DNA from: Phoronis australis | Taxonomy: Eukaryota; Animalia; Phoronida | Direction of reading: 5' to 3' | Assembly: GCA_002633005.1 (NCBI GenBank) | Contig: NMRA01000128.1 | Span: 150,051 to 214,050 of the forward strand | DNA length: 64,000 nt | Part shown: positions 1,719-64,000 of the stretch, in pieces | How the letters are laid out: every line of letters starts with the position of its first letter | How positions within the stretch are numbered: position 1 is the stretch's first letter | Notes under the pieces: generated by a model | Databases searched by the model: none | What the model saw: only the letters and a program-made list of their open reading frames with translations | Told to the model about the DNA's origin: nothing | Made by a program: the position numbers and the translations under genes

Positions 1719-3716
1719 TAATCCTGATATAGCGATTTTTACATGCCAATACAGTACAGTGAGTCTACACATTCACAAAAAAACAATAATGGGTAGACAA
1801 TTGGTGAAGGTTACAATTGGGGGTAGATTTTAACCACGTAAATTATTTGAGAGCCTAGAAATGTAGATCCTCACTGCCACACCCCCACGGCAAGTCAAGG
1901 AGCCCCACCCCGGGGTTAAAGCAGAGCATGCTCACAGTAGAAAAAAATATTTATGATGCTCATGACAGACAGTTATCGTGCTGATTAAGGCCAGTAATCT
2001 CAATGGTCAGCCAAAATGTGATGGGTTAAGTACGATTTTTGATGGAGGCACTCGTGGCGGCTGTGTCGTGACACCAGTCAATGATAGCCAAACCAAAACA
2101 AAACAAAACCTTGGTAATTTACAACTTGTTAGCAAACGAAATCAACGCAGGAAAATCAACGCCAGAAATTTGTAACATTCTTGATCCGCTAGGTGACGCT
2201 TAGCGCCANATTCCTGATTTTTGCCTGCTCTTGTGTATTTCTTATGGAGGGCTGCTGGCAGGATTTAGCGCATGCGCAGTAGTGCATGTTACAAATTTCT
2301 GGCGTTGAGTTCCATACTGTAACACGACACCTACTAATTACAAAGTACTTACATCGTCCCACTTGATGAATTTGTTCCCTTTAAGCAGATGATCAGGTAC
2401 AGAGATTGGTTTAAGTTGTACAATATGAACACCTGGCTTAATGCCCGCCATTGCGATTATAATTTCAATCGAAAACCCGTTGTGACAGCAGCGACACCTT
2501 CGCACACCTTTCCAAATGGACTCGACCGGTTTACATGTGACGCTGTTTACTTTCTCCTTCAAACAGTGTGGTGGGAACGAACAACCAAATGACAGCAGAT
2601 TAGCCGCTGCAAAGTTTGTTGGGCAACTATAAATCATGAGCCAGCAGACGCTTTTCAAGTATCTTGTGGACTCGTCCTGGTCACATGTCAGACACGTGGT
2701 TTTCGATAATGATCCATGGGAAACTGCCATATGACATGAGTGGAATTGGTTACTTTACCTGAAAAAGCTGTGAAGGTAAGTAAAATAAAATCAGTGCTGA
2801 TTAATGACCTATCGGACCTTACTTCATGCATAAAATCTATGGCATCACACTTGTCAGTAGGCATAGTCGGCCAGCTAACTGTGTGAAGACTAACCAGCTA
2901 ATGTCAAATTCAAAAGCGTCATCTGCTTCTCCAATCAGCAGAAACTTAGTCCTAGACAGTGACCACTATCTCTCGATCTTGCTGGGTTAGAGACGGTGAA
3001 GCTCCTTTGGGCCCTTCATACGCTGAAAGCTTTGTTCAAAGAGCTACTAAAACCATTCATCAATGCCGGCGTACTAGAGGCAGAGATTTTACTTAGCCAG
3101 CTATACATGTATGAAGAATTACATGAAAATACATTATGGAACTGCAGTGTGTTAACTTTACATAGACCTCGGAATTTTACACCTCTGTGTAGTTCTGCTT
3201 GTCACCTCATAGTGAAACATTTAGAGTTATAAACCTGGCAGGGATGCATCCAAAATCGTGGAATTATCCAACACCCGCTTTACCCTTTACTGAGCTGTCA
3301 TTTTCTTGCACAATTTTTAGTCTTTTGTAAGATGAAGAAAGTCTGTCATCGACTTGAAAACAGTATGGTTATGATGCATATGCTGTTTTTTCGCAACGTC
3401 TTTTGCGAGTTGATGACAGCTTTGCCAAAGCAAAATTTGCTCAGTAATTTTGGTTTGCTGTTATTAAAATAATAAAAACTTATAATAACGGAATGAAACC
3501 AATTTGGATATGCTGTTGTGACAAGTACATAACCTTGTGGAAGAACAACAATTAACTGAATAATCAACGAAAAATGAAATTGGCCAGAATGCGTCTCTAT
3601 TTCATGGCACTGAAAGCCATTATGCATACGATTATTACGCAAATTTAGCAGCAGAATAATAAACTGAATTTTTAGCACCAGTTACTAATTTTGTTTCCTC
3701 AATGAAGTGTTAGTTT

Positions 3717-4668
3717 CAGTGGCAGATCTAGGATATCACAAGGGGGGGCCCAACATTTTGTCTGTAAACATTTGCACAAAGCACGATTGTAGATGCGCAT
3801 GGCACCGAATGGGGGAGGTCGGCAAACCCCCCTCCCGCCAGGAAAATTTTTCTGTTTTTCATTTTCCTTGATTCCTGAAGTATTATCCAAGAAAAAAAAG
3901 GCAAAGGAAAAAGAAAAAAATAGAGACCGTGTCAAACTTGAAAAACTACCAGTACCACAGACTCGAACTCACGACCTGGTGAGGTTACAGGGCGCGTGCT
4001 TTACCACTGCACCACCACGATTTCTCTCGTGTTTTGATTCTAAGAGACATACTTGTTTATGGTCCACAGTGTTTGCGCACGAAACCTACTTCTTTTTGTA
4101 ATGCTTTTTACACTTTTTATATTTTGTGCAATCAGTTCGTAACAAATTTGTTGTATTTGAAATAGTCTTCAATTGCCCAAAAGACCAAGTCCGTTTTTTG
4201 TGTTGGCATTAATGACACGATTGCTTTGGAAATTGTCTTAAGTTAAGGTTTGACAAAGAGAGAATTATATGTTTCTGAGTGATTCACTAAGGCTTCGATT
4301 AAAATTCACATCTTACTAGCAGCTTCTGTTTTTTCATCGTCACTCAAATTCCATTTTCTTTAAAAAATGAAGTAAAATTTTCTTCATTGCACAGTGAAGA
4401 AGACGACGGAAACGGAGTCATAGTGCGCAGCGGCATTGCCAGTCGTCTGGGATATGGCGAGAGAGCCTATACATGTACTTAGCCATAGTTCGGTTACAAT
4501 TGCGCCGTGTTCCCAATTTGACACTTGAAATTGGATCTGAGCCCCGCCCTACAACTGCACACATTTAAATCTTGTTTCAGCCGTATAATGTTAATTACCA
4601 GGGTTAATTAATAAACTCAACATTTCCCTATGGGGGGGGGCCCTGGGCCCCCACCTAAATCCGCCTAT
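3717..4668. mobile_element. Non-autonomous DNA element with a tRNA-like internal segment
   Basis: Ends CAGTGGCAGATCTAGG...GGGGGCCC and GGGGGCCCTGGGCCCCCACCTAAATCCGCCTATG are imperfect inverted repeats typical of invertebrate MITEs. Confidence 0.45.
3951..4017 (-). repeat. tRNA-derived SINE head or tRNA pseudogene
   Basis: Minus strand reads TGGTGGTGCAGTGGTAAAGCAC...GGTCGTGAGTTCGAGTCT, with Pol III A and B boxes. The anticodon and acceptor stems do not pair. Confidence 0.5.
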
Positions 4669-6134
4669 GAGTTTCTAATGACATATTGTGTCAGATTTTA
4701 TTAGGCCATTTTGGACCCACGACATCACGAAGCTGTATTAATATTTATGCAGTTCTGCACCAAAGCCACAGAGATGACACAACTTAGCCAGCCAGCTAGT
4801 AGTATGTAACTTTAAATCAGAAACTGGTGTGTGTTAACTTCACATAGACCTCAAAATTTTACATCACCCTGGTAGTTCTGCTTATGACATCATCGTGAAA
4901 CTTAAATCAACACGCAGATGTAATGACCGGCAAGGATGCATGCAAAAATTTGGGAATCAACTGACAGGTACCTTGCCCGTTACAGCTGTTTAGGTAAAAA
5001 CAATCTAATAAACATCATTTTCTTTTGTCCTTTCCTGGCTTTTATAAGAAAGAATAGTGTGTCCGTGAAATTGGCGTATGATATTTTTGTGATTTTTCAT
5101 ATGATTTATTCTTATTTTTTCTCATTTATCTAAACATAAAATAAAAGAACATCGTTGGGACATCCTTGTGTGTTGCAGTGGACATTTATGCTGTGTGTTT
5201 TAGTATAAATCCAGATGTCCTGCTGTAAATCCAGATGTTCTGCTTTTTCATTTTTGGATTGTTGGCAACTGTTCACAAGTTTGTGTTTTTGACACACTCA
5301 AGGTTGGAGGGCATGGCAACAAAAAAAATGATCCATTATACTTTTCTAGCCCATTCCTGTATTAGAGGCCATTATGTCCACGCACAAAGTTCTGTATGTC
5401 ATTCATCATCGTTTCACAAGGTTACATTTCCATATAGGTGCCACCTGTGGCAGAAGGTATTTCTAAATGTAAGCCAAGACTAGCAGCATATTATATTACT
5501 GAACTGATAATTGGCCACCAGAGTCACCTCCTCATGCTAATACCACATGCGGGAAACTTTCAGTTGAAAAAATTATGACATTTGTTTTGTATTCTCGGAC
5601 ATCAAAAGCAATGGAAAGTAACCTTTAAAAAATACCCTCCATTTTAGCAGCACGTCTGACAACTACCCCTATTATCAAACTCCCCAAATGGATTCTTTTG
5701 TATGTGAATTGAATTTGAAAATGTACCATGTTGTGGGAATTTTGTCAAAATGGTGCCTTTTCTAGGGAAATTGGTCATGAAAAAGTCACCCATTTGAGGG
5801 GCACATCCCAAATCCTCATCTTTGAAAACTTCCCTAGGAAACAACAGAATCATTCAACATACTGTTCAAGCTCATCCCTAGGTTATTTGTTGACAGATCC
5901 AAATCAGGACCTGTAACTTTTTCATGGCCAGATTACTGTTGCTATTCAAACTCAGATAAAAAAGATGTTAGCAGCCCTACCTTTTGAAAGGTAAATCAAT
6001 GATACAATGTTTTTGTACCTTCGCAAATGGGAGGCTTGAATTTGGGAACAAGGAATTGTTGTTACAGATAAGCATTTTTTTGCCTACAACGATTTCTTAC
6101 AGGCATTAAATTAGTGTGGCAGGGTTACTTCAAA

Positions 6135-9100
6135 ATGGTCGTCACAGTTGAAGAGAGAGTGTCTCGTGCCTTTCAGTTGTTCAAAGAATGTGGCGACTCG
6201 CAGTATATTGGTGAGCCCATCAGTAAATCATCGCATAGCATTCAGTGTGGCATGCTGGCAGAGAAAGAAGGATACCCCGTGCAGGTTTGACATGCATTCA
6301 AAATTTTCAGTGATTTACAGTTGTTTTAAAAAAATCATAATGAAAGGCCAGGAGACTAGGCAAAACTTAGCTGGACATTTTTGCTTAGAAATTTCACTGG
6401 TTTTCATGAGAAGAAGTTTTGTCGATTATTTTCCTAAACTACTTGTAGTTGAATTAATTTCGCCTGTGGACACATCAGTTTATAAAGCCCTCAGCACTAA
6501 CAGGTTTTAACAAGGGTTTTATACATGTTTGGTCATCTCCCAGTTGTCAGCACTCTAGTATTTCTTGCGTCACATCTCAAAAAATGTTTGAAAAATGGAA
6601 AAAGGACTGCTTGCTTAAGATTCTTCACAATTTTCTGCCATGCACAGAAATTCCAGGTATGGATGGCTTCTGTATGATTTGTTGCCAGACCATCTTACAC
6701 CAAGGGACTCGGTGTATTTTATTAATCCACATATTTCTCACTCCAAAAATATGTTTGTGTCGTAAAAGGAATCATGAAACATGATTTGTGCTGAATTGGT
6801 GAGATGTTATTGTAATTGTTTTCTAATTGATTGATGTTGTGAAACTGCTTTCAGACTATCCTTGGAGCCTTTTTTCATGATATCGGACATTTAGTGGGTG
6901 AAGTTCAAGGTCAAGAACCCATGATAACCAATGGTGTTAACTACGGAGCCCAAGTAAATTTCTTCTATTAAAAAGTTCCTTAAATGTTGATTGTTAATTT
7001 TGTAGAAACCCTGCATCTGAAGAAAACTGTAAGTTTCCATGATGCCTGAATCAATGTGTCAATCTTCATGTGAGACAAAATTCCACATTAATGTACAGAG
7101 TCCTTTCAGGTTTTAAATCTGATCCAAAATTTTGAGGATTTTTTAAGGCAGTAAGTCAGTTCAAATTATTAGAAGACGATTCCACATCAATGAATAAGCT
7201 TCTGTTGAAAATGTGCTCAGAGTTAAACCAGTTGGCAACAAGTCAGATTTTGTAGGGCAGAATTAAGTTTATAATCAAAGTGACACAAATTCATACGTTT
7301 TTCATTATACCCTAAAATTCTGCTTACAATTAGCTCAACAGAAAACTTATGCCTCTGTGAAACGCTTGATCCTAAAGTTTTTGTAAGTCTTGCATTTGAC
7401 CAACGCTTACCCTCTCCCGAGTTACACTGGACGATTGAAAGAGCGACACAATCTAATAATCATCATTATCTGGCTGCACTCTCCCATTTTTTCAACAAAA
7501 CAAAATCCGTCGTCAACTTGAGAATGCTACACTCCTGATTTCTGCTCATCTTCTGTTGTTGACAAACAGACTATGGTGTCTCTAAATGGCAATTTAGGTT
7601 TTCTTTCCGTTTCCAAGTTCCTCTATGGATGTTCATACATTTAACTTGCAAGTTTGTGTGAAGGAAACAACAGCACCTGCCCAATTTCAGATGGATTAAT
7701 TTTTTACACATATGGGCGCATATTGCCATTTTCTCTGTCTGGGCGCCTGGCGTCAGAGCTTGCAGCTGTGTCTCCTAAGCCCCGTTGCAGAATCTTGATG
7801 AGATTTGGCAGGTACGTTCCTATCAAGCTGAAGATGGATGACGACTACTATTGGATGAATCCAACTACCACTATGACCCCTATTTGCAATTTTAGTTGTG
7901 TACATTTGCCTCTGTATCTTCCTAATTCTTTGATTGATTTTCATGAAATTTGGCATATAGGTTTCTAGTATGAAGATGACAACACCTTTACATTTTCGGA
8001 CGTCTGACAATTCTGCGTCACTTAGTGGCCGTTTGTAAAAAAATTTTGAGCTCGTTTTTTGGCGTACACCTTCTATCTTCCAAACCACTTGAAGGATCAT
8101 TATGAAAATTGGTAGGTGTGTTTCTGATGCGGAGACCGCAGTTAATATTGATTTTTTTCTTTAGTATGTTTGACTACTCTGATGTCCCTTAGTGAAGATT
8201 TTGTTTCAGTTTGTGTCCACGGCTGTAGACACCTGTCCCTTTGCAGGAACTTTGTGAAATTTGGCAGTTGTGTTTCTATGGAGTTGCCAACAGATGATGA
8301 CAAGTTTCTCAATGGTTCCCTGTGTGTCCGTTGGGGAAAAAAAGAGACGCAGGTATCATTCAGCAGCATGCGTTTTATTACTGGTTGATGTAACCTTGGC
8401 AGTCATTAGTTAACTTGACAACAAAGAAAGAAAATGGCAGACTGTGAACGATTTTTAGCCTTGTCAATATCTTTGAAAATCAAGTTTTCTCTCTGCAGTG
8501 TTAATAACATCAGAAAGACCAAGTTAAGTTGTCTGCACAGCCAATGCAGTTTATGAGCGTGACATCGATAGCCGAAAAGAACACTAGCATACTGACAACA
8601 ACGTAAACAAAATTCAGTGACAGTAGAAAAATTGCACACTGAAAGGGCACAACCACAACTTTCTGATTCACATTTCTTGAACATATCCCAATTAAGCACG
8701 GCCGATTTCTCCGTACAACAGACCACAAACTATATCCACATTTACACTTCCTCCATCAGTTCGAGCATTCCTTTTGGCAATTCAACCAGCCAAACAGAAT
8801 CGCGGGTGTAAAAAAATTTCCCGAGGAAAATTAAATGCTGCCTACATGTCTTCTTCCCTTAGTGGACTTGCAAGGAACCAGCGAGGACGAGTTTCAGCGC
8901 AATCCGACGATTGGGGTGCCCCCTAGTGGCAACTTTGTTTTTTTTACGTTTTTCTGAGTATCTTTGGAGTTCATTGATGGATTTTCATAAAACTTGGCAA
9001 ATAGGTTTCTGTTAAGGTGATGACAATGCCTTTCCATTTTCAGACAGATTTTACTTAATGTACGCCTCCTAGTGGGGATTTTTGACAGTTTTGAGTCCAT

Positions 9101-12100
9101 TTTTGATGTCTACCTCTCTCCACCAAACTACTTGGAGGATCATTGTGAAAATTGGCAGATGTGTTTCTGATGAGAAGGCCACGGCTGATGATGTTCGGAC
9201 GGGTTGCACTACTTTGGCACCCCCTAGTCGCATTTCCCCCGTCCTCAGCTGTGTATCCTTAACATTTTTTTAAGATCTTTGTGAAATTTGACGGACATGT
9301 TCCTATGGAGCTGACATTTTATGACGCATTTCAAACCCATTCAACTACCAATGTACCTCTTGTGGCAGTTTTGGTTGTTTAAGTGTGGCTCTATTTTCAG
9401 AGTTATCGATGGATTTTAATGAAATTTGGTAAATAGGTTTCTATTAAAACAATAGTCTTCTGCTTTCATGTAGATTTGATGTATTTTTGCATCACCTAGT
9501 GTTTTTTTTTATTTTTTCGAGTGCCTTTTTTGTTCCTGATAAGAAGACATTGATTTGTGGACAGATTTAACAACTGTGACGCTTCCTGGTGGCAATTTTT
9601 GTCTGTTTTTGTTCCTCGGCTATCTAAGACTTTTGAACGGTTCTGACTACCGCTGTACTCCCTAGTGGCAATTTTTGTTTTTACGTTTGCATTTGTATCT
9701 CCAGAGTTCTTTGACAGTTTTTATTGAAATGTGGTAAAAAAGCTTGTATTATTATGGTGATAGCATTTATCCATTTTGGGGTGGATTTGACATTCTGTGC
9801 CACCTATTGTCCATTTTTGACACTTACAAACACCCCTAGAAGCACACTGTTTGCGTTGCTGTCGTGGGCGCATTTCAACACTCTGCGTTGCTCTTGTTGT
9901 CATCTTGGTGTCTGTTTTTAGCATCTGCCTCTATATTTGAACCGCTTGCCAGTGAAGCATTATCGTGAAAGTTTAGAAAATAGTTCCTTTTAAGGAGAGC
10001 ATGACTGAAGTTAATTTTGGAACTGTTCTGCAGTAATGCTTCCTTGTGACACTTTTAAATTTCTTAGCATCTGCTTCAATATCTACCAAGTTCTTTGATA
10101 GATATCCATGAAAGCAAAACTGGATATGATTGATGCACCACAGTATTCATAAGATGTAGCCTGCTTCCAAGCATCGCTGGTAAACAACACAACACCCACT
10201 TGGCGTTGGAATTGGATATTGTCTGATCCGTTACTAGCATGAAAAAAAAATCAGTTAAGAATGGTTTTTAAACCAAAAAAGTCCACCCACAATTACCATT
10301 TTTCTAACAACGATGAATTCAGCGTGACCTCACTATTCAAGTAAGTCAATCAGGTTTTGGTATTTTTCTGCAGATGCACAATGTATGCACTATTGGCATT
10401 GTTTATCTAAGGGAAAAGTGAGAAAATAACTAAGTGGGTGATGAGTGTTGAGCCGCGTGCTCCTGTACAGATTAGTCATGCAATTTTGTTCATGACGGAT
10501 TACATAACGATAATGCTGTCACGAGTAGCTGTAGTCGTAAAGTTTGTCATTTGTGTTCCTAGTGTTGGAAGTCTGTACAACATATGTTGATTTTCAGATG
10601 GATCTGACTCATCGTTGAAATATTTCTAAAAATGATCACCCCTTGCTTCTTTATCATTTGCAATGCACGCAGTGGATTTCTTTCAGTCTCTGAAGAGACT
10701 AATTCCACTGCTATCACAGTCTTCAAAAGATCACTGATCTTCACAGAAGATCAAACACAGATGTATTTTCTCTGGATGTTTTTTCTAGAATCATGATGTC
10801 CTAGGTGAGTCCTTCCTTCAAGAACTTGGTTTTCCCCTCGAAGTTACAGACATTGTGAGAGGTCATGTGAATGCAAAGCGCTACCTGGTGTTTAAAGACA
10901 AAGACTACTACAACAGTGAGTGACTAAACTAAACATGAAACCCGGCATTCTTTTGATATGCGTCACAAGGCAGTATCTTTTAGGGCAACTTATAAACCTA
11001 CATTCGTCGAAGAAGGGAAATTTTAATTTAGGTCACCCATTCTACTATAAGATTGATTTCGACTTATTCCTTACTCAGTAGAGAAGTGATTTCTGGGCCA
11101 AAGAACTCACAGTTTGTTATTGCTTGAGACTGCAGTCTGCACATAAGATGACGCGCCATGACAACCCAAATTGTACAGGCTATTCTCAAGCAATAACAAA
11201 CTGTCAGTTCTTTAGAAGCTTTGAAATTACTTCCAACTTGACTAAAGGAAAAAAAGTGTTTCAAATTAAAAGTTTTTGTGTTGTCAGCTCCTGAACAGCT
11301 CCTGTGCACCACCTAACGTTTGAAAGGTCATTTCCTGTTATAATAATGGTTATAGATTGCTGGTTACTTAGTTTAGGATCAGTGGAGATGTCAGTTCGTT
11401 GTTTTGCTGAGGCTACTCTTGCCATATTTATTAACCTACATCAAGCAATAGCGAACTGCCAGGTCATCCCTAGCCCTGCAACTACCTGTATTTTAAGTAA
11501 GCAAGAATTCGAGGCTAATTTTTATGCGCCCATGTATTTATATGTGGACGCATTATGTCGTTATATATGTCCGTCCATCCGTGTGGCGTCTGCTGCTCTA
11601 TCTCCAAAATGCCTTGACGTATGGTCATGAAATTTTGCGCATGTGTTTCTTCCATGGATGGGACAGCATGAGCGAACTTTCGGACGGATCCGACTACCAT
11701 TGTGCCCCCTAGTGGCAATTTTAGTTTTTTACGTTTACCTCTGTATCTTCAGTCCTGAGCGAATTTTCATAAAATTTGGTATATAGGCATCTATTAGTGA
11801 GATCATGCTATCCTCCCGTTTTGAGATGGATTCGACGTAGTTTGCACCACCTAGTGGCCAGGTTTACTGTTTTCGAGTCTGTTTTTTTGCGTCCGCCGCT
11901 CTATCAACCAAACCGCTCAAAGGATGATTGTTAAAATTGGCATATATGTTCTTACTTTGAAGTGGATGGCTGACGATGATTTTCCGATGACTTTGACTAC
12001 TGTGGCCGCACCTCCTAGTGGCATTTTTGTTTTTTTTTGTGCTCATAGCTGTATCTCCTAAACTGTTTGCAGCATCTTTACTTAGTTTAACAAGTATATT

Positions 12101-13330
12101 TATATGATTTTGACAACGGATGGCGACGACTTTCGGACGGATCTGACTACTGGTGTGCCCCCTAGCGGTCTGTATCTTCAACTGATTTTCATTAAGTTTT
12201 GAATATAGGCATCTATTGGTGAGACGACGCTATCATCCTGTTTTTGGATGGAATTGAGGTATTTTGCACCACCTGGTGGTCATTTTTGCTGTTTTCAAAT
12301 CTTGTTTTTGGCGTCCACCCCTCGATCAATCAAATCATTCTAGGGATGCTTTTGAAAATTGGCGTATATGTATTCAGTGTGAAGAGGACGTTTGATGATG
12401 GTGATTGACTACTGTGGCGCCGCCTAGTGGTAGTTTTGTTTTGCGCCCATAGCTGTATCTCCAAAAAACCACTGCAGGATCTTTATTAAATTTAGTAAGT
12501 GAATTTATATGAAGATTACAGACCAAGACTTTCAGGCGCGGATCGAACGGACGCTGTGCCCACAAGTGGCACTTTCATTTTGTTGTGTTTTCCTTTGGTT
12601 CTCTGGGGTTCCTTGACAGGTTTTTATGAAATATGGCATGTTCCCATTTTTGGATGGATTGTACGTTTTTACGCCATCTAGTGGCCATTGTTATGATACA
12701 AATAAAAGTAAACCATTTGCGATGCAATCGTGGGCGCATTTCAACGCTCCGCGTTGCTCTTGTATAAGTTAAATTTGTTAAAAGTAAAACTAATGCTAAG
12801 CTATGATTAGGTGAAGTTGTCTGTTTTCTGCTATAATTCTTTGAAATTGTCCTTGTCCAGATTGATATTATTTATACAATTCAAACAGGCTGACTGGCCT
12901 AGCAATGAAATCAAGTTTTGTTCCTATGTATTTTTGTTAAGAAATTTGATAAAATAACATTTGCTGTTCTGCATGATCTTGCTGTAAATTGAAGCAGCCT
13001 GATTGTGTAGTTTTAACAACATGCAACTAAGAAAAAAGATCAACAAAATCAATTCTTGTGATGCGCTTATCATTAGCTTTGGTACCCAGAAATCTATCTC
13101 TGATCTGTTTTTAAGGGTTATCTGATGCCAGTAAGCGAACGTTGGTCCATCAGGGAGGACCCATGACTCCAGATGAGGCGGAGTCATTTGAGAGGTCACC
13201 CCGGTTCAAGGAGATCTTGCGTATGCGGCAATGGGATGAACGAGCCAAAGAAGTAGACATTGAACTAGACGGTCTGGGGAAGTTCAAGCAAATGTCTATA
13301 GACTATTTGATGGCACTAGAGGGCAGTTAA
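6135..13330 (+). CDS. phnZ-like: PhnZ-like HD-domain diiron oxygenase (2-amino-1-hydroxyethylphosphonate dioxygenase-like), 196 aa, 4 coding exons
   Basis: Exons 6135-6284, 6855-6953, 10789-10915 and 13116-13330 are GT-AG and in phase (591 nt). Translation: MVVTVEERVSRAFQLFKECGDSQYIGEPISKSSHSIQCGMLAEKEGYPVQ/TILGAFFHDIGHLVGEVQGQEPMITNGVNYGAQ/NHDVLGESFLQELGFPLEVTDIVRGHVNAKRYLVFKDKDYYN/RLSDASKRTLVHQGGPMTPDEAESFERSPRFKEILRMRQWDERAKEVDIELDGLGKFKQMSIDYLMALEGS*. Motifs YxxE, HDIGH, NH, HVxAKRYL, LSxAS..TL..QGG and R..D..AK are those of the PhnZ family. Confidence 0.9.
7699..9898 (+). mobile_element. Helentron-associated (HINE/DINE-1-like) element with degenerate internal tandem repeats, in PhnZ-like intron 2
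   Basis: Repeated degenerate units containing CCCTAGTGGC and GAAATTTGGCA. The 3' end GGGCGCATTTCAACACTCTGCGTTGCTCTTGTT (subterminal IR plus stem-loop) is shared with the copy at 11518-12763. The 5' boundary is approximate. Confidence 0.55.
11518..12763 (+). mobile_element. Helentron-associated (HINE/DINE-1-like) element, in PhnZ-like intron 3
   Basis: 5' TTTTTATGCGCCCAT...ATGTGGACGCAT (subTIR plus local IR), then a short TCCG/TCCA microsatellite, a tandem core with CCTAGTGGC units, and a 3' TGGGCGCAT followed by hairpin CAACGC-TCC-GCGTTG-CTCTTGT. Confidence 0.65.
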
Positions 13331-15504
13331 AGAAATGCTATGTAAAATAACAAATTCTGTAAAAATGCCTTCAATCAGCTGAACATTGTTCAAATATTTG
13401 AGTGCATCTTTACTACAATAGTGCAGTTTCATTCTGTTAAACGAGTCACGCACATCAGTTGGATGCACGAAATCCTTGAAATTCTTCCCTATATCGCCAG
13501 TTACTGTAACTACGGTAGACAATAAATTTTATTTTGAAATTTTGTTTTTAGCTCAAGGATTTTAGGAGTGTGCACTGTGTCATTGGTGCATAAAAAATTC
13601 ATTCACTCACTGTACTTGCTAAACTCTAGCAAAATGACATTAATATTGTGTCCTTTTTGTTTTGCCATAGAATAAAATGCATTGGATTCATATTATAACA
13701 CAATGACAATTCAGACAAAACTGATCTAATTGTTCAACAATGTCTGATCAAGTATAAAACACGATGTCAGGGACGGGTCTTATTTACCATGCTCTTAAGA
13801 ATATAAAATTATTGTGGGTACTTGGACAAATTATAACTTTGTGTCACCTCCAGTTGCTATCATTGCAGTCTCCATGGATATTGCAATTTTTTGGGGCCCA
13901 CCGTCCACGTCCTACCTGGTTCTAATGATCCTGTATATTATGAAAATGCAGGTTCCAACTGTGGATTTAGTGTTCGGTTTTAAAAACTGAATGCAGTTAG
14001 TGTTTAGACCCATCAACAGTTGTGTAAGGTACTTGGGTAACTGTCAAACTCACACGCATAAGATGCTGCCATCAAAACACATTTAAGAGGAAAGAACAGA
14101 ATAAAGTGACGTTACTCACAAGTCCCAATGTGTGAATTACCCATAATCCTGTTTTTCTAAATTAATCCATGCTACTGGTGTCAGTCACCACATTTCACTT
14201 GGTGATCTAACGATCTTTTAGCCCTGCGGGTACCATAGGTGCATCGTGTAAAATTTTGTGAAGGCAAGTTACCTCTTTGCTCAGGACACGTAAATTGAGA
14301 AATAAAAGGAAAATCAGTGCTAGTGTCACTGAACACTTTCGAGTGTTTTAGTGAAATTTTTCAATCTTCATAGCGGGTGCTTTATATAAACCAAAATCGA
14401 TGTGATGGGTGGTACTTAAAGCAACATCTTTGTTAACTGTTATTTTGGTACATGCTTTGTGGTGGAATCATTTTGTTTCATTTTTTAATGAGGAGTTTGG
14501 GTTACAAATTACACATGATGAAAGCATTGAGGAAGATTGGTTGCTAACAACTATCCGTTTTGAAGTTTGCTATTTTGGCTTGACCTATTTCCAAGAGTGC
14601 AACTCATGTTGAAAAGGCTTATGTCAAGCCCACTTTCGGAGTTTAGTGAAGGGACGTATCCAGACTTCGGTAACAACTGTCCACTTTTTCTTATAGTGCC
14701 ACGTAAGTTTCATTTGTGCATCCAATTAAGTCATCGGTATGGCATTTTTGGGATAAAAATTTTGTGGCCATAAACATGTAATTGTTCAGTTTGCATGTGT
14801 GTGTGTGTGTGAGGCCTTCTTTGTTTCATGGTATTGCATATAATGAATCCTAGCCTTGTAAGGTCTTTGTGTTGTGTAGCATTAACAATAAGGCAACTAG
14901 TTGCTTAGGGGTCTCGTTTGCTCATCTTGATACCTTCGCAGGAAGTTGAAATTCTTTACTATTCTTGTTGTGTATTTCGACAAGCTGCATCACTCGCCTC
15001 TTATTTTGCCCAGGTAGTGATTTTACGTGCTGTAGGCACTAATGCTGGTCAAATGTGCTGGTGTCAAGACTGGACGAGTAGTACATTTTACCAAAATTTT
15101 GATACTTCAATCATCTTGATCATGTATATTGTTGTACGTATTGATGCACTCTGATTTGACTTTTATCATCAAGCAGCCATTTAGTTTAAAAAACAAGGTG
15201 ATGATTTCATGTCATTTTATTAATAAAAATAAAACCATTTTTGGTACTAACAGATACACTTCTTTCAGTAATTCTCTTTAATGGAATGAAACGATCCCTT
15301 ATTTTGAAAGAAGAATGAAACCTATCGTTGTACTTACTATTTCTCAGAGACAGCCACTCAGCCTTTATTGTTAAGTGCCGTGATGGCTAAATGACAAGTG
15401 GTCACTACAATATTAATGAAACTCCTAACGAGGAAGAGGAGCAGAAAGTTATTGAGAATGCCATCAACAATAATCAACTGCTCCTTGTCAGTAAGCTCGA
15501 GTAA

Positions 15505-18500
15505 TCAGTCCTTTTTCTTCTGCGTTTTTGGAGAGAAATAAGTTAAAATTGTCCTGGTTTTACGGGCTGGACTCTGAAAAAGAACAAAAGCAGATCATGA
15601 ACCCAGCTAAGACTTGGTTATTTAATTGTCGTGGTGCACACTTTTTCTCAAGAATACATGTTTCTTTACATTCTGGTGGCCAAGCCCAATTCTAAAGAGT
15701 TACAAATTATTAACAAAAACATCTTTATAACAAAGCCTGAAGAGTTACGAGGGAGAAAATCTGATTTCCTGACTGACAACTGACTTTTGGTATTGAAGCA
15801 ATGCCCTGCATGTGCTGTTACTGTTGAAAGTAAACAGGTGCAGTACTACCTTTTAAACGTCGTATTAACTTGAACACAATAGTTACCTCCAGGCTGGGCG
15901 ATGCTGGTCGACTTCTGGACGACACGGGACTGACCCCCTTACTGCCGCGTCGCTGCTGATTCAGACTGGGCGATGCTGGTCGACTCCTGCAAGTAACAGG
16001 ACTACCCCCCTCCCTGGAGTTGCGTCGCTGCTGACTCAGCTGAGTCAACCAATCAATCTTCTTTGGTGAATTCTCCTTATTGCTAGGTGGCACATAGATC
16101 GACCTGGGTTGTGGATTGAGAACGTAGTTTGGTAGATTGCTGGTAGGTGACTGAGGTGTGCCTCCAACAGCCTGCACCCAACCTGCTGTCTCCTCATGAC
16201 ATTTGAACAGCTTCTTTACAACATTGTAGTCACTGGACTCACGAAATACTGTCTTTGATTGCACATTACTTTTCACAGACTCATAATTGCACTTCTTAAG
16301 GGGTGGCATATGGCAACCGTTCGACACCTTAGCGCCATCTAACTTCCGTTTTACCCCACACTTGACAGGTGACAATGCATCCTGAATTTCACAAGCACCA
16401 TAGCTATCGGATGACTTCCGTGGGCTGAGAAACAAGTTTATTTTTCTCGGCGAGGAAGACTTTTGTGGTGATTTAAGATTCTTCTTCAGTAGTGCATACT
16501 TTGGTCCAGACTTTGGGCTAAGCCACTCCATGAGTGTTGGGAGTTTATAGGTGGGAGACTTGAAAGACTTTGTTACAGTAGGGACTTGTTGTTCCTGATT
16601 TGCAACTTTAGTTGACAAAGTAGATTGCGTGATAGAAGAATGGCAGTCAACCACTTGCTCGGACTCCGTACAAACCACTGCAATGTAAATATGTAATATT
16701 CACTGTTGAATAGTGTTTACATAGAAAATGTCAACCAAAACTAAACCAACTAGGATAGTCAAAGGTTTGTAACACTGGAAACACTGAAAATGGTCTCCAT
16801 GTCACTTTAGAAGATCATAGACGGCACTAACATAATTTAAACAGAATTCAAAGTCGCTTTGGAATAATCGAGAATATACAAATGATAAAATGATGAGAAA
16901 GGAACTCTGGATGCAATGAAATAAGTAAGGTTATAACCTGCACAATAACATGTAGTCAATTAAATTCTTGGTTCATATCATAAGACTTGTTGCCCGATAG
17001 TCCAATGAAATCAACATTGTAGCGCTGCACAGGACAAACATCTGCGTCACATCTTTAAAATAAAACGTGACTAATTCTGATGTGATAAAAACTCCCTAAT
17101 CATGCACTGTCATCAGGATACAGCTCTACCACCAGGACTGGCCGAGTCTCGCCGAAAGTGCGGCTTAGCCGTTACTCCAAGAGGATATCTCGAGTAGAAT
17201 AGACACGTTATCACCAGCATGAATTACTCACCTTTTTCACTAATTCGTCTGTGGGCTTTGCCAACAACAGTTGCTGGTTCGACTGGTATTGAACCATCAG
17301 ACTGCCAGATCCACATAGAATTATCATCAGATAATGTGGCTATCTATACAACAAAATGAGGAAATTGTAAATTCCAGAATTACACAAGACATACTTCTGG
17401 ATGCTCACACACCCATTACTATGCCAAATAAACCAATTCAGTGACATTTTTTGGCTGCTGTGCACCCACAATTTACAAGATGTGAACACTTTTATTTAGC
17501 CATGGCAGACTGAAAAGCCGATGACATTTATTTGATCAAGACTTAATTCAAAGTCCCAAACGAATACCAAATTAATGTCTTGAGAGTGCAATGACTGACT
17601 AGATGGTAGTTTTGGCCGAGAACCTACATAGACAAATAATGGCATAATACTGTTGAATGAAAGGAAACAATTTATAGCAAGAAAATTCATGGCAGAAAGC
17701 ATCACCTTGGTAGTGTCTGTAGGGCACCAGGAAACATCAGTCACCTCCCCTTGGTGTCCCTCCAGAACGACTGGACCACTCGTTGGCTCATTCAAGCACC
17801 ATATGTACGCCAAATCATCACTTGAACCACTCAGGAGGTATTGGTCATCAGGACTGACTGCAGCCTTCACGTAGAATGTAGCATTGCGGTGACCTCTGTA
17901 GGTAGCCACTGAAAGAACACAAAGACCAGTATGACACCAATATGTAAATTTATACGTTGGTCTAAGGGAAAGTCAATCATTTGTAACCTTTCTTATGGCA
18001 CATTAGCAGATGACATTTACAAATTCAAATTCTCAGAACTTACATGGGCCTGTTATACAAAATAGGTTAGCTTTTTTGCCTACAAACACTGCTTTAACAC
18101 AATGATGTCACCAAACCAAGTCAGATTAAAACGAGTGTATTTTAAGACACGCATCACGATTTCAATGCCTGAAAGGATCGTCTGCTCCACATTGAGACAA
18201 TGCGCAACCAAATAGGAAGGAGCTGATGTCAAAAAACAATAAGAAGGAAATCTGCCTCAATATTTTGGAAATGATACTCCATCCAAGTTTGATGGAGGAG
18301 AAACACCAGCGCCAGACAAGAGCAATGTCAGTTCAATGCACATGGAATACAAACGATGATACAACACTCTGGGCAGACCAAGACTTGTGCAATTTGGATA
18401 TTCAACAGACAAACATGCATCAAGTCTTAATCTCTTCAGGGTTCTCATAAGTAGCAAACAAGACACGTCAGTGACAGCCATGCAGTGTAGAGAACGCAGC

Positions 18501-21500
18501 ACAACTCGACACAAATGCAGTGGAATATTCTGCAACATCAAAGGCCAAAAACGTGCTACAGACTGGAAATTTCTTCAAAAATTTTCGGGCATTTTCACTA
18601 GGAGAGAACTTTCCTGTAAATGATTGTAACTTTTGTGCGCAACAGTTCATGCAGTTAATGAAGAAGCCTATCAAGGCATGAAACACGAGAGAACAACACT
18701 TTGCAGTACGCCAATTAAGGAAACCAAGTCATTTTAGATTGATTATGTAAATTCAATCTTGTCAAACATTTCGTAATAATAATAATAATTATAATAATAA
18801 TGTTTATTGTACATTGTAGGCTTTGCCTACTCATTCATAAATACATAAATTCAAATGTACGGTATATTCCGAATATTTACACGGAGAGCAGTTCTTCTCT
18901 TAAAGCCATAGCCTTCTGAATATACAATGTGAGGCGCTGGATGCTGTCATGATTTTTCTGTTGGAATAACCTAACAGGAGAATAGTTAACATTCACAAGC
19001 TCTGGTAGAAGATTTCTTCTAAGGCCTCCAAGAACAGGGCATCTACAAATGAAATGAGGCTCATCTTCAATTTCACCCAGACAGCATATGCCGCATATTC
19101 TCTCACCTCTAGGAATACCCATATGTCTCCCTTTCTCTATATTAAGTGAGTGACCTAGAAATACCCGTATGTCTCCCTTTCTCTATATTAAGTGAGTGAC
19201 CTAGGAATACCCGTATGTCTCCCTTTCTCTATATTAAGTGAGTGACCTAGGAATACCCATATGTCTACCTTTCTCTATATTAAGTGAGTGACCTAGGAAT
19301 ACCCATATGTCTCCCTTTCTCTATATTAAGTGAGTGACCTAGGAATACCCATATGTCTCCCTTTCTCTATATTAAGTGAGTGACCTAGGAATACCCATAT
19401 GTCTCCCTTTCTCTATATTAAGTGAGTGACCTAGGAATACCCATATGTCTCCCTNGATCTAAAAATCAATTTTGGCGCGTAAAAATGGCGGGAAAATTTT
19501 GCGACCTGGCATTTATGAATGCGAGCTGGATTTTGGAAATGCGACCTGGGATTCTGGCTAGGTCGCAAAATGCGACCTGGCGATTTTAATAGCGTCGAGC
19601 CCTGCATGCAGTTAATGAAGAAGCCTATCAAGGCATGAAACACGAGAGTACAACACTTTGCAGTACGCCAATTAAGGAAACCAAGTCATTCAAGATTGAT
19701 TATGTAAATTCAATCTTGTCAAACATTTCGTAATAATAATAATTATAATAATAATATTTATTGTACATCGTAGGCTTTGCCTACTCATACTCTTAAAGCC
19801 ATAGCCTTCTGAAAATACAATGTGAGGCGTTGGATGCTGTCATGATTTTTCTGTTGGAATAACCTAACAAGAGAGTAGTGAACATTCACAAGCTCTGGTA
19901 GAAGATTTCTACTAAGGTCTCCAAGAACAGAGCATCTACACATGAAATGAGGCTCATCTTCAATTTCACCCAGACAGCATATACCGCATATTCTCTCACC
20001 TCTAGGAATACCCATATGTCTCCCTTTCTCTATATTAAGTGAGTGACATGAACAACGAAACTGCGCGAATATTTTTCTTGAATAAGCGCTTAAACAATTC
20101 ACATATTGCTCGCTGACGAGATCGCATTTAATAAGACTATAAAATTCATATTCATTTAAGCCACCTATTTCCAGTTGCCAATCCTGTACGCCACAATCCA
20201 GCAATCTCTGTTTGAACAGAATTTTTGAAATCATTGTGTCCTCCCATTCCTCCATTACAATTCCTGTGTAAATAAATCATAAACTAATGTAACATGCGAT
20301 GACAGAGCGAACACTGTAAAAGGCCGGGACAAGTGCAATCTGGTCTCACGTGACAGTATTGCAATAATCACAACCTTGTACAGTGTGCAGGCATGCTGTT
20401 AATAGGATGCCAAACATGCAGAGACTTAATACTGAAGTTCGTCAAGCACTGTCTATGATATATATAGTAAAGGTTTAGTGGAAACTACTCGATCAGTCAA
20501 CTTGGCCCAGGGATCAGAGACGAATGTTGTACTGAATAACAGTCAACTTGGCCCCGGAACCAGAGGTGATTATATACAGAGTAGCAGTCAACTTGGCCCA
20601 CGGACTAGAGACGAATTTTGTACTGAGTAACAATCAACTTGGCCCAGGGACTAGAGACGAATGTTGTACTGAGGAGCAGTGAACTTGGCCCAGGGACCAG
20701 AGATGATTGCTGTACAGAGTAGCAGTCAACGTAGCCCATGGACCAGAGATGATTGTTGTACAGAGTGACAGCCAAGTTGGTCCAGGGAACAGATATCATT
20801 GTTGTAAAGAACCAGTCAGTTTTGTTTGAAGTTATAAACTACAAAGTACTACACCAGTATTTCCAGGATAATCACTAACCAAAGTACAGCCACTATCAAC
20901 AGTTTTCCGCATACCTGAATCCAACAACACCATGTCCATTCAGTCCATACGCTGCTGCCGCTGCTGCTGTGCGATGATGAAGAAAGCACGGATCTGCTGT
21001 AGGCCGGGACAAGTGCAATTTGATGAGGACACACAAATATTGCTCCTGACACGGCCTACTACAACCCACTTCAATGCGCATACATAAGAATAAAACAAGC
21101 CATAAACATTTCTTCAAAAGTCTCTGGCAATATACTGACCAATAACCCTGCCTCCATGGCCCAATCTGACCAACGTAAATTATAGGCCCACAAAACAGCG
21201 ATCAAGATATGCTGCGCACAAGCAGGCCGGGACAAGTGCAATTGGTTTTCAGTTAAAACACCCACTACTGCACTCGAACCCGCCTACATGTGCGCAACTA
21301 CGACTGCGCCATTACCAACAACCTCTTGATCCCAACTAAATGTACACAGAAATAACAGGCTCTTTTCAAACATACCAGTATTCAGAAAAAAGACACTTCC
21401 CCTGAATGGAAATTGATTCCACAAGAGAACTCCAGTTTGAACAAGCAAACTGGCTTGTCAGTAGGTGTCAGCACTGTGCCAACTAGGCCGGGACAAGTGC

Positions 21501-24500
21501 AATTTGAATCAAGAGTACAATATTGCACCCATACCAACCTAGCAGTCATAGCAATAGAATGTCTCAAAAACTGCGGCAAACCAAGCAGAGATGGTTAATT
21601 TCCACATGGACAACCCGTCTGATGGACACAAGTAGGAAACTACACATGCTCAGCAAAACGGATGTGACTCTTACCTGGCTGTGATGTGTAGCTTGCACAG
21701 TTGTACTCGTAGATAATATCATCCATACAGTTGGCAAACAGCCGTGTGCGTGAAGAGTCCATACAAAGGTTGGAAAATCCTATCAAACAGACGTGCCAAA
21801 GGATGGTTTTAATGAAGGAACTCAATTTTTGTTAGGGAAACCCCGATGACACACATGTTAGGCAATTCATAACACTGATCTGAGCTTAACAAATGGTAAC
21901 ATCCTGAAATTTGAGGCATTTTATAAACACATCCTGAGTTCATCGAAAGCAGAATTAGAAATTTTATAAACCATACCATAGTCTTTGGTTAGAACTTGAT
22001 GTTATAAGTTCTCAAGCATACAGTTAAGAAACTAAAATAAATATTGATAACAAATTTGTGCTTCATATTCTAGAACCTACAAGCACCATTAGAAAATAAC
22101 TGGCATTTTGCCCCTAAGCTTGTGCTAAAATCAAACCCTGCAAGCCAGTAACATTGGCACAATGTTTACTTGTTCAAGTATCAAAATAGTCCGATTTTGA
22201 CAATAAATCAAAACAACCGTATTATTTACTAAAGACCTCAAAGCTATCTATCACAAGGCACAGTTTTAAATAATTAAAGTTACTTGATTCAGGAAGTACC
22301 GAATTTTGAACTGGATTGTTCAAGTGTGAACTTAACTCTTCAATTCTGAACAATGAAATTTGGCCCCACTTCTTAGTCAGCCTTACCATGCTTGCGTATA
22401 CCAAGTCCAGCGTAAGTGAACAGTTGCCAGGGGACAGCAGTCGACTTTAGAATGCTGTAATTCTTTCGCAAATCCCAGACTTTGATATTTCTGGAAATTG
22501 ATAAGAATTGATTTACGATGGGAATTAATATGTGGCAACAACAAACATTCACTCGCTGAAGGTGTTGAAGGATGTGGTCTGAGGTTATCTCAGGATTAGG
22601 AGGTCTCAATAAATTTGTTGGTTAATCCTCCCTCTTGACAATTTGAACTTAATTGAATGAGCATGGAAATAAATTTCAGTTCAGTTCAACAAAAACGCTA
22701 AGTTCCTCAAGTTTGAGGAAACGTCTTAAACCAAGAAATGTAACATCCAGGAAATCAACTCTTCCGTGAACAACCGGATACAATTATCTGATCTAAAATG
22801 CCTACAATTTTATCTTCAATTTCATGCATTTTTTGAGGCATTTTTCTTTGCAGGTAAAAATAATCATCTCATAACAAATAAAGTCCTTCGCAAGTTTGTT
22901 ATTTTTAGGCAGACTATTTCAGTTGTATTTCAGTAATCTACACACCCGTCAGCAGCACCAGCTGAGATGAGGTAATGGTCATCTTGAAACAGGACTGAGG
23001 TCACACTTTGTTGGCTGGATTCTTGAGTGATCTGTTTCACACGTCGTCTGCTCTTCTGGGTGATGCTCTTGTCCACCAGTGAGTGAGCATTGCGTATCTG
23101 ATTGACAGAAGGAATGGAACCATCTGTAAAAACATGTCAATCTATCACAGTCTACTATGAGGTGACACTACACAGGTAGCAAGAGCAGGGGATGGAAATG
23201 ATTCCAGCCTTGATACTCTAAAACTTCAGTACTGGACTAGCAAGCACCGAACACACAGTTAACGGTGCCCCTAAACTCCACACGTGCACTGACAATACTA
23301 CATATCTGAAAATTCTTCAAAACCAGTGAGCAGGTGTGGAGCAGTGTCAGTACTGGAGTTTAGGGGATGAAAACCATGTACTACGTAAGCCAACACCAGT
23401 GTGTACTATCTCACTAGTATTGAAGCATGGTCATGGGATCGTTTCTATCCCCTGAAGAAGTACTATGCAAAATTTCAAAACCTTGCCAACTACTAAATAC
23501 AACAATAAGGTTATTTGTGCTTTCATTTAACACAAATCGAAGTGGTTAAATTACTGTTAAGAAAAAATATGTCACTTGTATAATAGTATTCTAGCATTAC
23601 CATTGGATGTGTGGATAGTATTCTAGCATTACCATAGGATGTGTGGACAAGAAACAATGGAGTTGAGATGGCAGCAAGGTGCTACAAAGTGTTAACAGTT
23701 CACTAAAGGACCAACAAACAAATCACTGACACCCCACTCGTGGGTCTCCCTACCAATCAGGGGAAATGGGGCAAAATGGCAAACAGTCCACTAAAGGACC
23801 AGCAAACAAACTCACTGACATTCCACTTGTGGGTTTCACTACCTACAGGAGAAGTGGGTCAAAACGGCAAACACAGTTCACTTAAGGACCAGCAAACAAA
23901 TCACTGACACCCCACTTGTGGGTTTCCCTACCGATCAGGGGAAGTGAAACAAAATTACCATATTATTCAAGGTTCACATAAAGACCCTCGTCTGTAATGC
24001 GTAAAACCAGCATGAGAAATCTCAGGCAGAGTGCTGCTGTGCAGTATCATTTTAGCACCATAAAGTCAATATAGGTGGGACAAAACTCAAACTTTGCTTT
24101 ATCTTGCAAAAATGTCTGAAATATTAATCCAGGCTGTACATACAAATGACACCCACCAACGAAAAATAGAAGCAAAATATAGTTGTTCATAACTTAGACA
24201 AAACTCATGCTGAGTGTGCAACAGGAACAGTTCAATTACATTTAATGAGGTTGTTCCCAGCTTGAATATTCAGTGAACAGACAGAAATGAAACCGCTCAG
24301 AGGAGTGAAACTTGGCGAAATTAACCGAAAAGACGATGATGACAACGATGATGATTATGATGATGAAGGTGGCAATTATGAAAAACACAATAATATACAC
24401 ATGACTAGTGAAGATGTCACAAATCAGTAAGAAATAGGCTACAGTCTTAAGCGACACTTGGCGAAATTAACTGAAAAGATGATGATAGAGATGACGACGA

Positions 24501-63754: not shown

Positions 63755-64000
63755 GTAAGTGTTGTTGCTAATAGACTCGTATGGTTTGTGAAATGAGCTT
63801 CAAGAATGGAGCGTACCAAAGTTAAGGAGATAATTTTTGTGCATGATTGATTTGAATTTTTATGTGTTCGGTATATTGGAGTCGCCCTTTACTAATTACA
63901 GTGCAAATCGGGAATGGCATGAAGAGATGCTTATATGTTGTCGCTTTCGCTGTTATGGTCAGTTTGAAAACTTAAATCCCTTACTTAAACTATCGTCATA

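Follow-up and report, generated by a model that had tools for sequence, protein, structure and literature searches.

Phosphonate breakdown has so far been described for microbes, and the locus reported here raises the question of whether animals can also split the carbon-phosphorus (C-P) bond. The window analyzed is a 64,000-nucleotide (nt) stretch from the phoronid Phoronis australis (contig NMRA01000128.1, positions 150,051 to 214,050 of the forward strand; positions below are those of the window), and the gene in question encodes a protein resembling the bacterial oxygenase PhnZ. A first-pass annotation of the window had proposed that with this protein the animal may catabolize phosphonates itself. 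The locus was found to hold a real, spliced and expressed animal gene of five exons, and animals that carry it are, judged from its sequence, likely able to split the C-P bond of hydroxylated phosphonates.

The coding part is spread over four exons (Table 1) separated by introns that all run from GT to AG, in phases 0, 0 and 1, and the product is a protein of 196 amino acids (aa) followed by a stop codon. Three raw RNA runs of one study (X2, X3 and X4; 18–19% of each run was read) carried reads across intron 1 (27/25/7 reads in X2/X3/X4), intron 2 (22/23/8) and intron 3 (30/25/8), so that the RNA check proposed in the first-pass annotation bore out every coding junction. In all junction reads the first mate was on the minus strand, as expected for a plus-strand transcript in a usual stranded library. 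A 790-nt contig of run X1, which comes from a second study with the same species label and whose status as RNA is a guess, holds all four coding exons with 1–4 letters differing per exon; seven coding allele differences were mapped, four of them silent and three altering residues 21, 100 and 191, and the active site was untouched. Reads also joined an extra non-coding exon ending at 2775 to position 6103, in the 5' untranslated region (UTR), across a GT..AG intron (17/8/1 reads, with at most 70 letters on the short side). The open reading frame of 196 codons in four coding exons that had been described as clean was thus correct, but the gene as a whole has five exons. Upstream of the ATG at 6135 the 5'-UTR exon has a stop in frame, so this ATG is the start and the protein has no N-terminal extension or fusion. 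At the other end the X1 contig sets the minimum extent of the 3' UTR at 13462, and an AATAAA motif is found at 13521. When 2215 six-frame segments of the window were searched with a profile of homologues, it matched precisely the four exon frames (E 1e-24 to 2e-8), which shows that the gene is not a product of chance.

Table 1. Exons of the oxygenase gene and neighboring genes in the window.
Feature	Position	Strand	Content and evidence
Exon 1, non-coding, 3' part	2706..2775	+	Joint-spanning reads extend at least to 2706; in-frame stop
5'-UTR intron, 3327 nt	2776..6102	+	Junction reads; donor and acceptor read
Exon 2, UTR (32 nt) then codons 1-50, ATG 6135	6103..6284 (coding 6135-6284)	+	YxxE loop Y24/E27, Fe ligand H34
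Exon 3, codons 51-83	6855..6953	+	HD dyad H58/D59, H62, lid loop with 5-residue insertion (M73, G81)
Exon 4, codons 84-125	10789..10915	+	H85, H109, K113; aligns to 4MLM 80-118
Exon 5, codons 126-196, stop 13328-13330, 3' UTR	13116..13462 (coding 13116-13330)	+	S131, T134, Q138, R163, D166, E167
DTL/CDT2-like WD40 gene	15821-27779	-	Faces the oxygenase gene tail-to-tail
CCT4 (TCP-1 delta) gene	47582-51718	+	
BAH-domain exon	63557-63793	+	

All 14 active-site residues listed in the first-pass annotation (Y24, E27, H34, H58, D59, H62, H85, H109, K113, S131, T134, Q138, R163 and D166) were found at the positions given there, and the PhnZ numbering that it had given agrees with alignments to PDB entry 4MLM, being the same through H62 and shifted by +5 from H80 onward. 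The six-ligand diiron motif H..HD..H..H..D, aligned to 4MLM, is present as H34, H58, D59, H85, H109 and D166. The YxxE gating loop (Y24, E27) is also present, and is invariant in 32 of the 33 named animal species introduced below, the region being missing from one gene model; H62, K113, S131, T134, Q138 and R163 are shared by the window protein and all 33. The full set of 14 is invariant across these animals with the exception of an N-terminally short Oscarella model without Y24, E27 and H34. Residues K113, S131, T134 and Q138 correspond to K108, S126, T129 and Q133, which we take to be substrate-site residues of PhnZ. Roles for the six iron ligands, the Y24/E27 gate, H62 and a D161–R158–E162 chain are given in passages of PMC8177086 and PMC7916636, the latter assigning H62 and R158 to the substrate site. 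The best PDB matches of the window protein were PhnZ and then TmpB. Exon 2 aligned to 4MLM residues 6–46 and to TmpB residues 27–61 and matched the model TIGR03276 at E 4.6e-9, and the last exon alone aligned to 4MLM residues 122–185 at E 1.7e-12, with TmpB at E 1.7e-7. A Pfam scan of the single exons gave nothing above cut-off, and no N-terminal hydrophobic stretch was found (maximum 9-residue hydropathy 0.72).

The fold was examined on a structure model of a stand-in, the orthologue P0005, which is the closest among those without a species name (56% identical to the window protein) and has a predicted local distance difference test score of 97.5. Its best match was substrate-bound PhnZ (4N71; template modeling (TM) score 0.84, E 3e-13), followed by TmpB (TM 0.81), and every one of the 10 PDB matches at E ≤ 0.001 was PhnZ or TmpB. 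Compared with PhnZ of the uncultured bacterium HF130_AEPn_1 (4MLM, 4MLN, 4N6W, 4N71), the animal protein is thus alike in its six iron ligands, YxxE gate, H62, equivalents of K108, S126, T129, Q133, R158 and E162, length, lid-loop M and G, and predicted fold; the gene differs in being spliced, in its 5-residue lid insertion and in having no adjacent phnY*, at about 38% identity (stand-in).

The distribution of the gene was surveyed with a brittle-star orthologue as query, which found 1663 proteins at E ≤ 1e-10; the best 120 of these were listed. Thirty-four of the 120 rows belong to 33 named animal species from seven phyla, comprising 2 sponges, 3 cnidarians, 11 molluscs (two of them freshwater), 1 brachiopod, 6 arthropods, 7 echinoderms and 3 hemichordates. 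The RefSeq label [quoted passage not shown] stands on 21 of the best 120 rows (20 species); these invertebrate proteins are orthologues at 50–58% identity, and the label is automatic, by similarity. The gene framed at first as a peculiarity of "this animal" is therefore not peculiar to it. No vertebrate, insect or nematode name occurs among the best 120 matches, a pattern that suggests loss.

A maximum likelihood tree was built from 84 rows of this one short gene (LG+G4, no mixture model), covering 27 of the 33 named animal species, with TmpA-adjacent proteins as outgroup; the sequences of 4MLM, 6NPA, GmPhnZ1 and MIOX were not among the rows, and close stand-ins were included for 4MLM and 6NPA only. 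A clade with support 97/94 united the window protein with 26 named animals and 2 further rows. A barnacle protein fell outside this clade in a weakly placed position, and forcing it inside was not rejected by the approximately unbiased (AU) test (p 0.33; 2 rows without species name were added to the test after inspection of the tree). In a quick tree of 143 rows, from which one Patiria isoform was omitted, the animal group received a Shimodaira-Hasegawa-like approximate likelihood ratio test value of only 88. In the sea star Patiria a 19-aa insert between two isoforms falls exactly at intron 1 of the window gene, which would indicate a shared ancestral intron, as read from protein isoforms and not from sea-star DNA.

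In view of these results it is extremely improbable that the gene is a contaminant or was recently transferred horizontally from bacteria to this lineage. A clade of Bacteroidota and Pseudomonas proteins does neighbor the animal clade in a weakly placed relation, the barnacle protein lies outside, and the distribution is patchy in its lack of vertebrates, insects and nematodes; but the gene has four spliced introns, the window protein is 55–58% identical to its counterparts in other animals and no more than 50% identical to those of named bacteria, and the animal clade and the Patiria insert speak for inheritance within animals. The first-pass annotation had likewise argued against contamination, and the introns, the clade and the orthologues in 33 named species uphold it, although the "flanking metazoan genes" that it had invoked, as far as identified (DTL/CDT2-like and CCT4), are pan-eukaryotic and not particular to metazoans. 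Of the alternatives that it had set for a tree, recent transfer is largely refuted, and the gene is most simply explained by vertical descent from early animals; an ancient transfer, older than the animals, is a possible origin.

Within the family, the animal clade belongs to a 100/99 group that also takes in PhnY*-PhnZ fusions of fungi and protists and the Bacteroidota/Pseudomonas clade, one member of which scored 187 bits to PhnZ (4MLM) against 133 to TmpB. The TmpB clade, one member of which scored 366 bits to 6NPA, lies outside this group at 100/100. In the lid-loop columns L63, M73 and G81 the animals agree with the PhnZ-side bacteria and not with TmpB, and T75 and H137 are animal features of the protein. 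By sequence comparison the animal clade is on the PhnZ side of the family, outside TmpB, and the expected grouping with PhnZ-like oxygenases instead of HD hydrolases was recovered. TmpB of Leisingera caerulea (6NPA; NF049941) shares the catalytic residue set and the fold and differs in its separate clade and its lid-loop residues; no TmpA-like exon was found in the window. The fungal fusions of the PhoF type (Fonsecaea PhoF, cited in a passage of PMC10574752) and those of protists fall in the same PhnZ-side group and differ from the animal protein, which has a single domain. A fusion of the PhoF type was considered for the window gene and ruled out by the in-frame stop of the UTR exon and by the stop at 13330 seen in the X1 contig.

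Three further observations concern the wider family. When the tree was rooted on TmpB, the Bacteroidota/Pseudomonas clade nested among eukaryotic sequences, a placement sensitive to the choice of root and to weak branches. Both domain orders were seen in PhnY*-PhnZ fusions (31 HD-first, 11 PhyH-first), which are spread across the PhyH tree, a pattern that suggests repeated fusion or fission of the two domains. PhnZ-like proteins are also encoded by 31 viral contigs, many of them labeled as giant-virus metagenome-assembled genomes and two longer than 1 Mb; in 3 of the 31 the protein is fused to PhyH.

A route that starts from 2-aminoethylphosphonate (2-AEP) needs a hydroxylase of the PhnY*/TmpA type as well. 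None was found in the window, where the best match of a PhyH profile had E 0.69 and a TmpA-like query matched nothing in the 2215 six-frame segments. Of PhnY*-like representatives the best 150 of 2780 were listed, 27 of them fusions, and 30 stand-alone proteins were checked; none bore an animal name, the 8 with an organism name being 3 fungi, 3 protists and 2 bacterial clusters and the other 22 having no organism given. This is weak evidence on an animal hydroxylase, since most representatives lack an organism name and PHYHD1-like and BBOX-like enzymes, which we take to be candidate animal hydroxylases, lay outside the search. Among 22 longer homologues, 18 carried PF05721 (mostly PhyH fusions), and no animal name was present among the 5 with a source or organism name. 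Protein-cluster look-ups returned fungal and bacterial clusters only and carry little weight. The conversion of 2-AEP to glycine and phosphate by this animal, as first proposed, therefore lacks its hydroxylase in the places searched; from the proposal of phosphonate catabolism there remains a transcribed PhnZ-type gene with an intact predicted active site, and the full AEP route is unsupported in the form first given.

Bacterial gene neighborhoods were taken from GTDB as the best 80 of 569 loci found with a mixed profile and ranked by likeness to the bacterial protein P0067. A phosphonate-catabolism gene was a neighbor at 71 of the 80 (a TIGR03364 flavin adenine dinucleotide (FAD) oxidase at 53, a PhnX-like gene at 50, and a 2-AEP ATP-binding cassette transporter at 12), a PhnY*-like gene at one, and a TmpA-like gene at none. 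These neighborhoods tie the branch to aminophosphonate breakdown, commonly without an adjacent hydroxylase. The nearest named bacterial relatives of the animal gene are such partnerless phnZ genes of AEP clusters (TIGR03276, with phnWX/phnWAY or with TIGR03364-TIGR03351); they resemble it in having no adjacent hydroxylase (79/80 loci) and differ in standing in an operon with transporters and hydrolytic enzymes. Passages of PMC8154272 describe phnZ without phnY* in phnWX/phnWAY clusters, never together there with PbfA, the lyase of (R)-1-hydroxy-2-aminoethylphosphonate (R-HAEP), and cite R-HAEP as occurring naturally in amoebae and certain bacteria. In 52 of the 80 loci a DUF5690 (PF18943) gene adjoins phnZ, together with TIGR03364 oxidase and PhnX-like genes, and is a candidate aminophosphonate transporter. 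A phnZ-like gene on a Nostoc plasmid (L084:2983-3543) was found within a C-P lyase operon.

By analogy with PhnZ the animal protein is probably a cytosolic mixed-valent diiron oxygenase that converts R-HAEP and O2 to glycine and phosphate. In the mechanism carried over from PhnZ, an Fe(II)/Fe(III) pair would be held by H34, H58, D59, H85, H109 and D166, and the 1-hydroxyphosphonate would chelate one iron. E27 would then swing in and bind the amine while Y24 leaves the second iron, where O2 binds; the resulting superoxo species would take the hydrogen of C1, the C-P bond would break with no external reductant, and glycine and phosphate would be released. Acting without a linked hydroxylase, the enzyme may serve in salvage or clean-up of R-HAEP from food or from an unlinked hydroxylase, a weaker proposal made by comparison with the partnerless phnZ. 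A broader proposal is offered only tentatively and is somewhat doubtful: most invertebrate phyla may have inherited a C-P-cleaving oxygenase from the first animals and, pairing it with a putative animal hydroxylase, may mineralize their own 2-AEP lipids and glycans to glycine and phosphate.

Several points weigh against the oxygenase with R-HAEP as substrate. Gene structure, transcription, residues, distribution and PhnZ-side position are its directly shown parts; the activity of the animal protein is predicted from sequence and from the PhnZ analogy, the fold is that of a stand-in model, and the tree is that of a single short gene, modeled by LG+G4 with no mixture. The six animal-type orthologues scored against TIGR03276, the Phn-HD equivalog, reached 188–198 bits, below the cut-off of 214.6; this model is prokaryote-tuned, and the animal gene is not placed under it. 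TmpB-clade proteins keep the same 14 residues, with T134 replaced by S in 4 of 13, so these residues do not fix the substrate, and a passage of PMC8177086 cautions that the chemistry of HD proteins cannot be inferred from sequence alone. The animals have the 5-residue lid-loop insertion, and H137 in place of the Y or F of PhnZ-side bacteria, and both may alter specificity. The 80 bacterial loci are taxonomically clustered, some being shorter than the 4-kb flanks requested, and PMC8154272 describes how abundant R-HAEP is in nature as poorly documented.

The chief rival to R-HAEP is another phosphonate under the same chemistry, namely N-methylated HAEP (yielding sarcosine, dimethylglycine or glycine betaine, as in TmpB) or hydroxymethylphosphonate (yielding formate, as in GmPhnZ1), and it is unlikely though far from negligible. 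Besides the residues common to TmpB and the lid loop unlike that of PhnZ, it can draw on coding exon 1, which alone scored 22.8 bits to TmpB and 22.2 to PhnZ, and on the TIGR03364 oxidases beside 53 of the 80 bacterial loci, one member of which oxidizes N-methyl-AEP according to a passage of PMC10590968 that also places N-methyl AEPs in marine organisms. The position of the animal clade outside TmpB (100/100) and the match of L63, M73 and G81 to PhnZ-side bacteria oppose it, as do the NCBIfam models, of which TIGR03276 scored best for the six orthologues; these reached 140–165 bits for NF049941 (TmpB) and 111–130 for NF052439 (the GmPhnZ1 hydroxymethylphosphonate dioxygenase), against a cut-off of 300 for each.

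Readings that leave phosphonates aside fit the residues worse. It is distinctly unlikely that the fold has been repurposed, in the manner of MIOX or SmaX, to break a C-C bond of a diol or alpha-hydroxy acid by oxidation, even though no hydroxylase partner was seen in the window or among the 30 PhnY*-like proteins, the gene is kept in phyla without evidence of phosphonate metabolism here, and HD oxygenases with C-C chemistry exist (PMC12186529). All 33 animals keep K113, S131, T134, Q138 and R163 unchanged, as would follow from continued binding of a phosphonate if these residues have the roles assumed for them. MIOX (2HUO), which is likewise an animal mixed-valent diiron HD oxygenase, cleaves a C-C bond of inositol and has no YxxE loop, and it matched the stand-in model only at TM 0.52 and E 0.27 with 11% identity; the one-iron site of SmaX stands against the full six-ligand set of the animal protein. 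A dimetal HD phosphohydrolase like YqeK, with no oxygenase activity, is very improbable. The motif H..HD..H..H..D also occurs in YqeK (PMC8177086), one orthologue is named "HD phosphohydrolase-like", and K31, three positions ahead of H34, is a basic residue of the window protein; but HD phosphatases are marked by a conserved arginine that precedes their first histidine by about three residues (same source), and this hallmark is absent, position 31 being Q in 20, K in 9 and R in 0 of the 33 animals. The window protein reads K31/S32/S33, a single one of the 33 animals has R at position 32, the protein carries the YxxE gate, and matches of hydrolase structures to the stand-in model were confined to E ≥ 0.036 and TM ≤ 0.37.

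Passages of the literature give the phosphonate share of total phosphorus in some marine invertebrates as up to half (PMC3266647), report AEP synthesis genes in corals (PMC3640398), and, in a 2023 review, call phosphonates "even more cryptic in eukaryotes" (PMC10574752). Full-text searches found, among the matches listed (30 of 9410 in one case), no paper on an animal PhnZ, though the sequence surveys or supplements of the primary PhnZ and TmpB papers could mention animal homologues, and the RefSeq enzyme name occurred in the searchable full texts in only two papers, both on marine microbes as judged by title. The chemistry and the automatic label were known already, which limits the surprise; new is an ancient, expressed animal gene that raises the question of C-P cleavage. 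Since the protein is a small soluble enzyme present across seven animal phyla, animal C-P cleavage becomes answerable with one recombinant protein. If it is indeed such an oxygenase, animals gain a second mixed-valent diiron oxygenase beside MIOX; if it is paired with an animal hydroxylase, the phosphonate cycle would be complete in animals and C-P cleavage would be no microbial monopoly. The gene also defines a hunt for that missing enzyme.

Other features of the window were noted around the gene. At 2230–2524, just 5' of the first exon, most RNA reads come from the opposite strand, and the motif GCGCATGCGC, which we take to be an NRF1-type site, occurs at 2268 within this region. The region is possibly a bidirectional promoter; the reads could instead stem from a repeat. 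An interspersed element with a shared end motif and internal tandem units of about 140–160 nt is present in at least 3 copies in introns 2 and 3 (7650–10050 and 11500–12770), and RNA reads related to it reach a depth above 2000 on one strand. The element resembles non-autonomous Helentron/DINE-like elements. Intron 3 further contains, at 11100–11213, a 30-nt inverted repeat that is 97% complementary with its arms 54 nt apart, similar to a miniature inverted-repeat transposable element.

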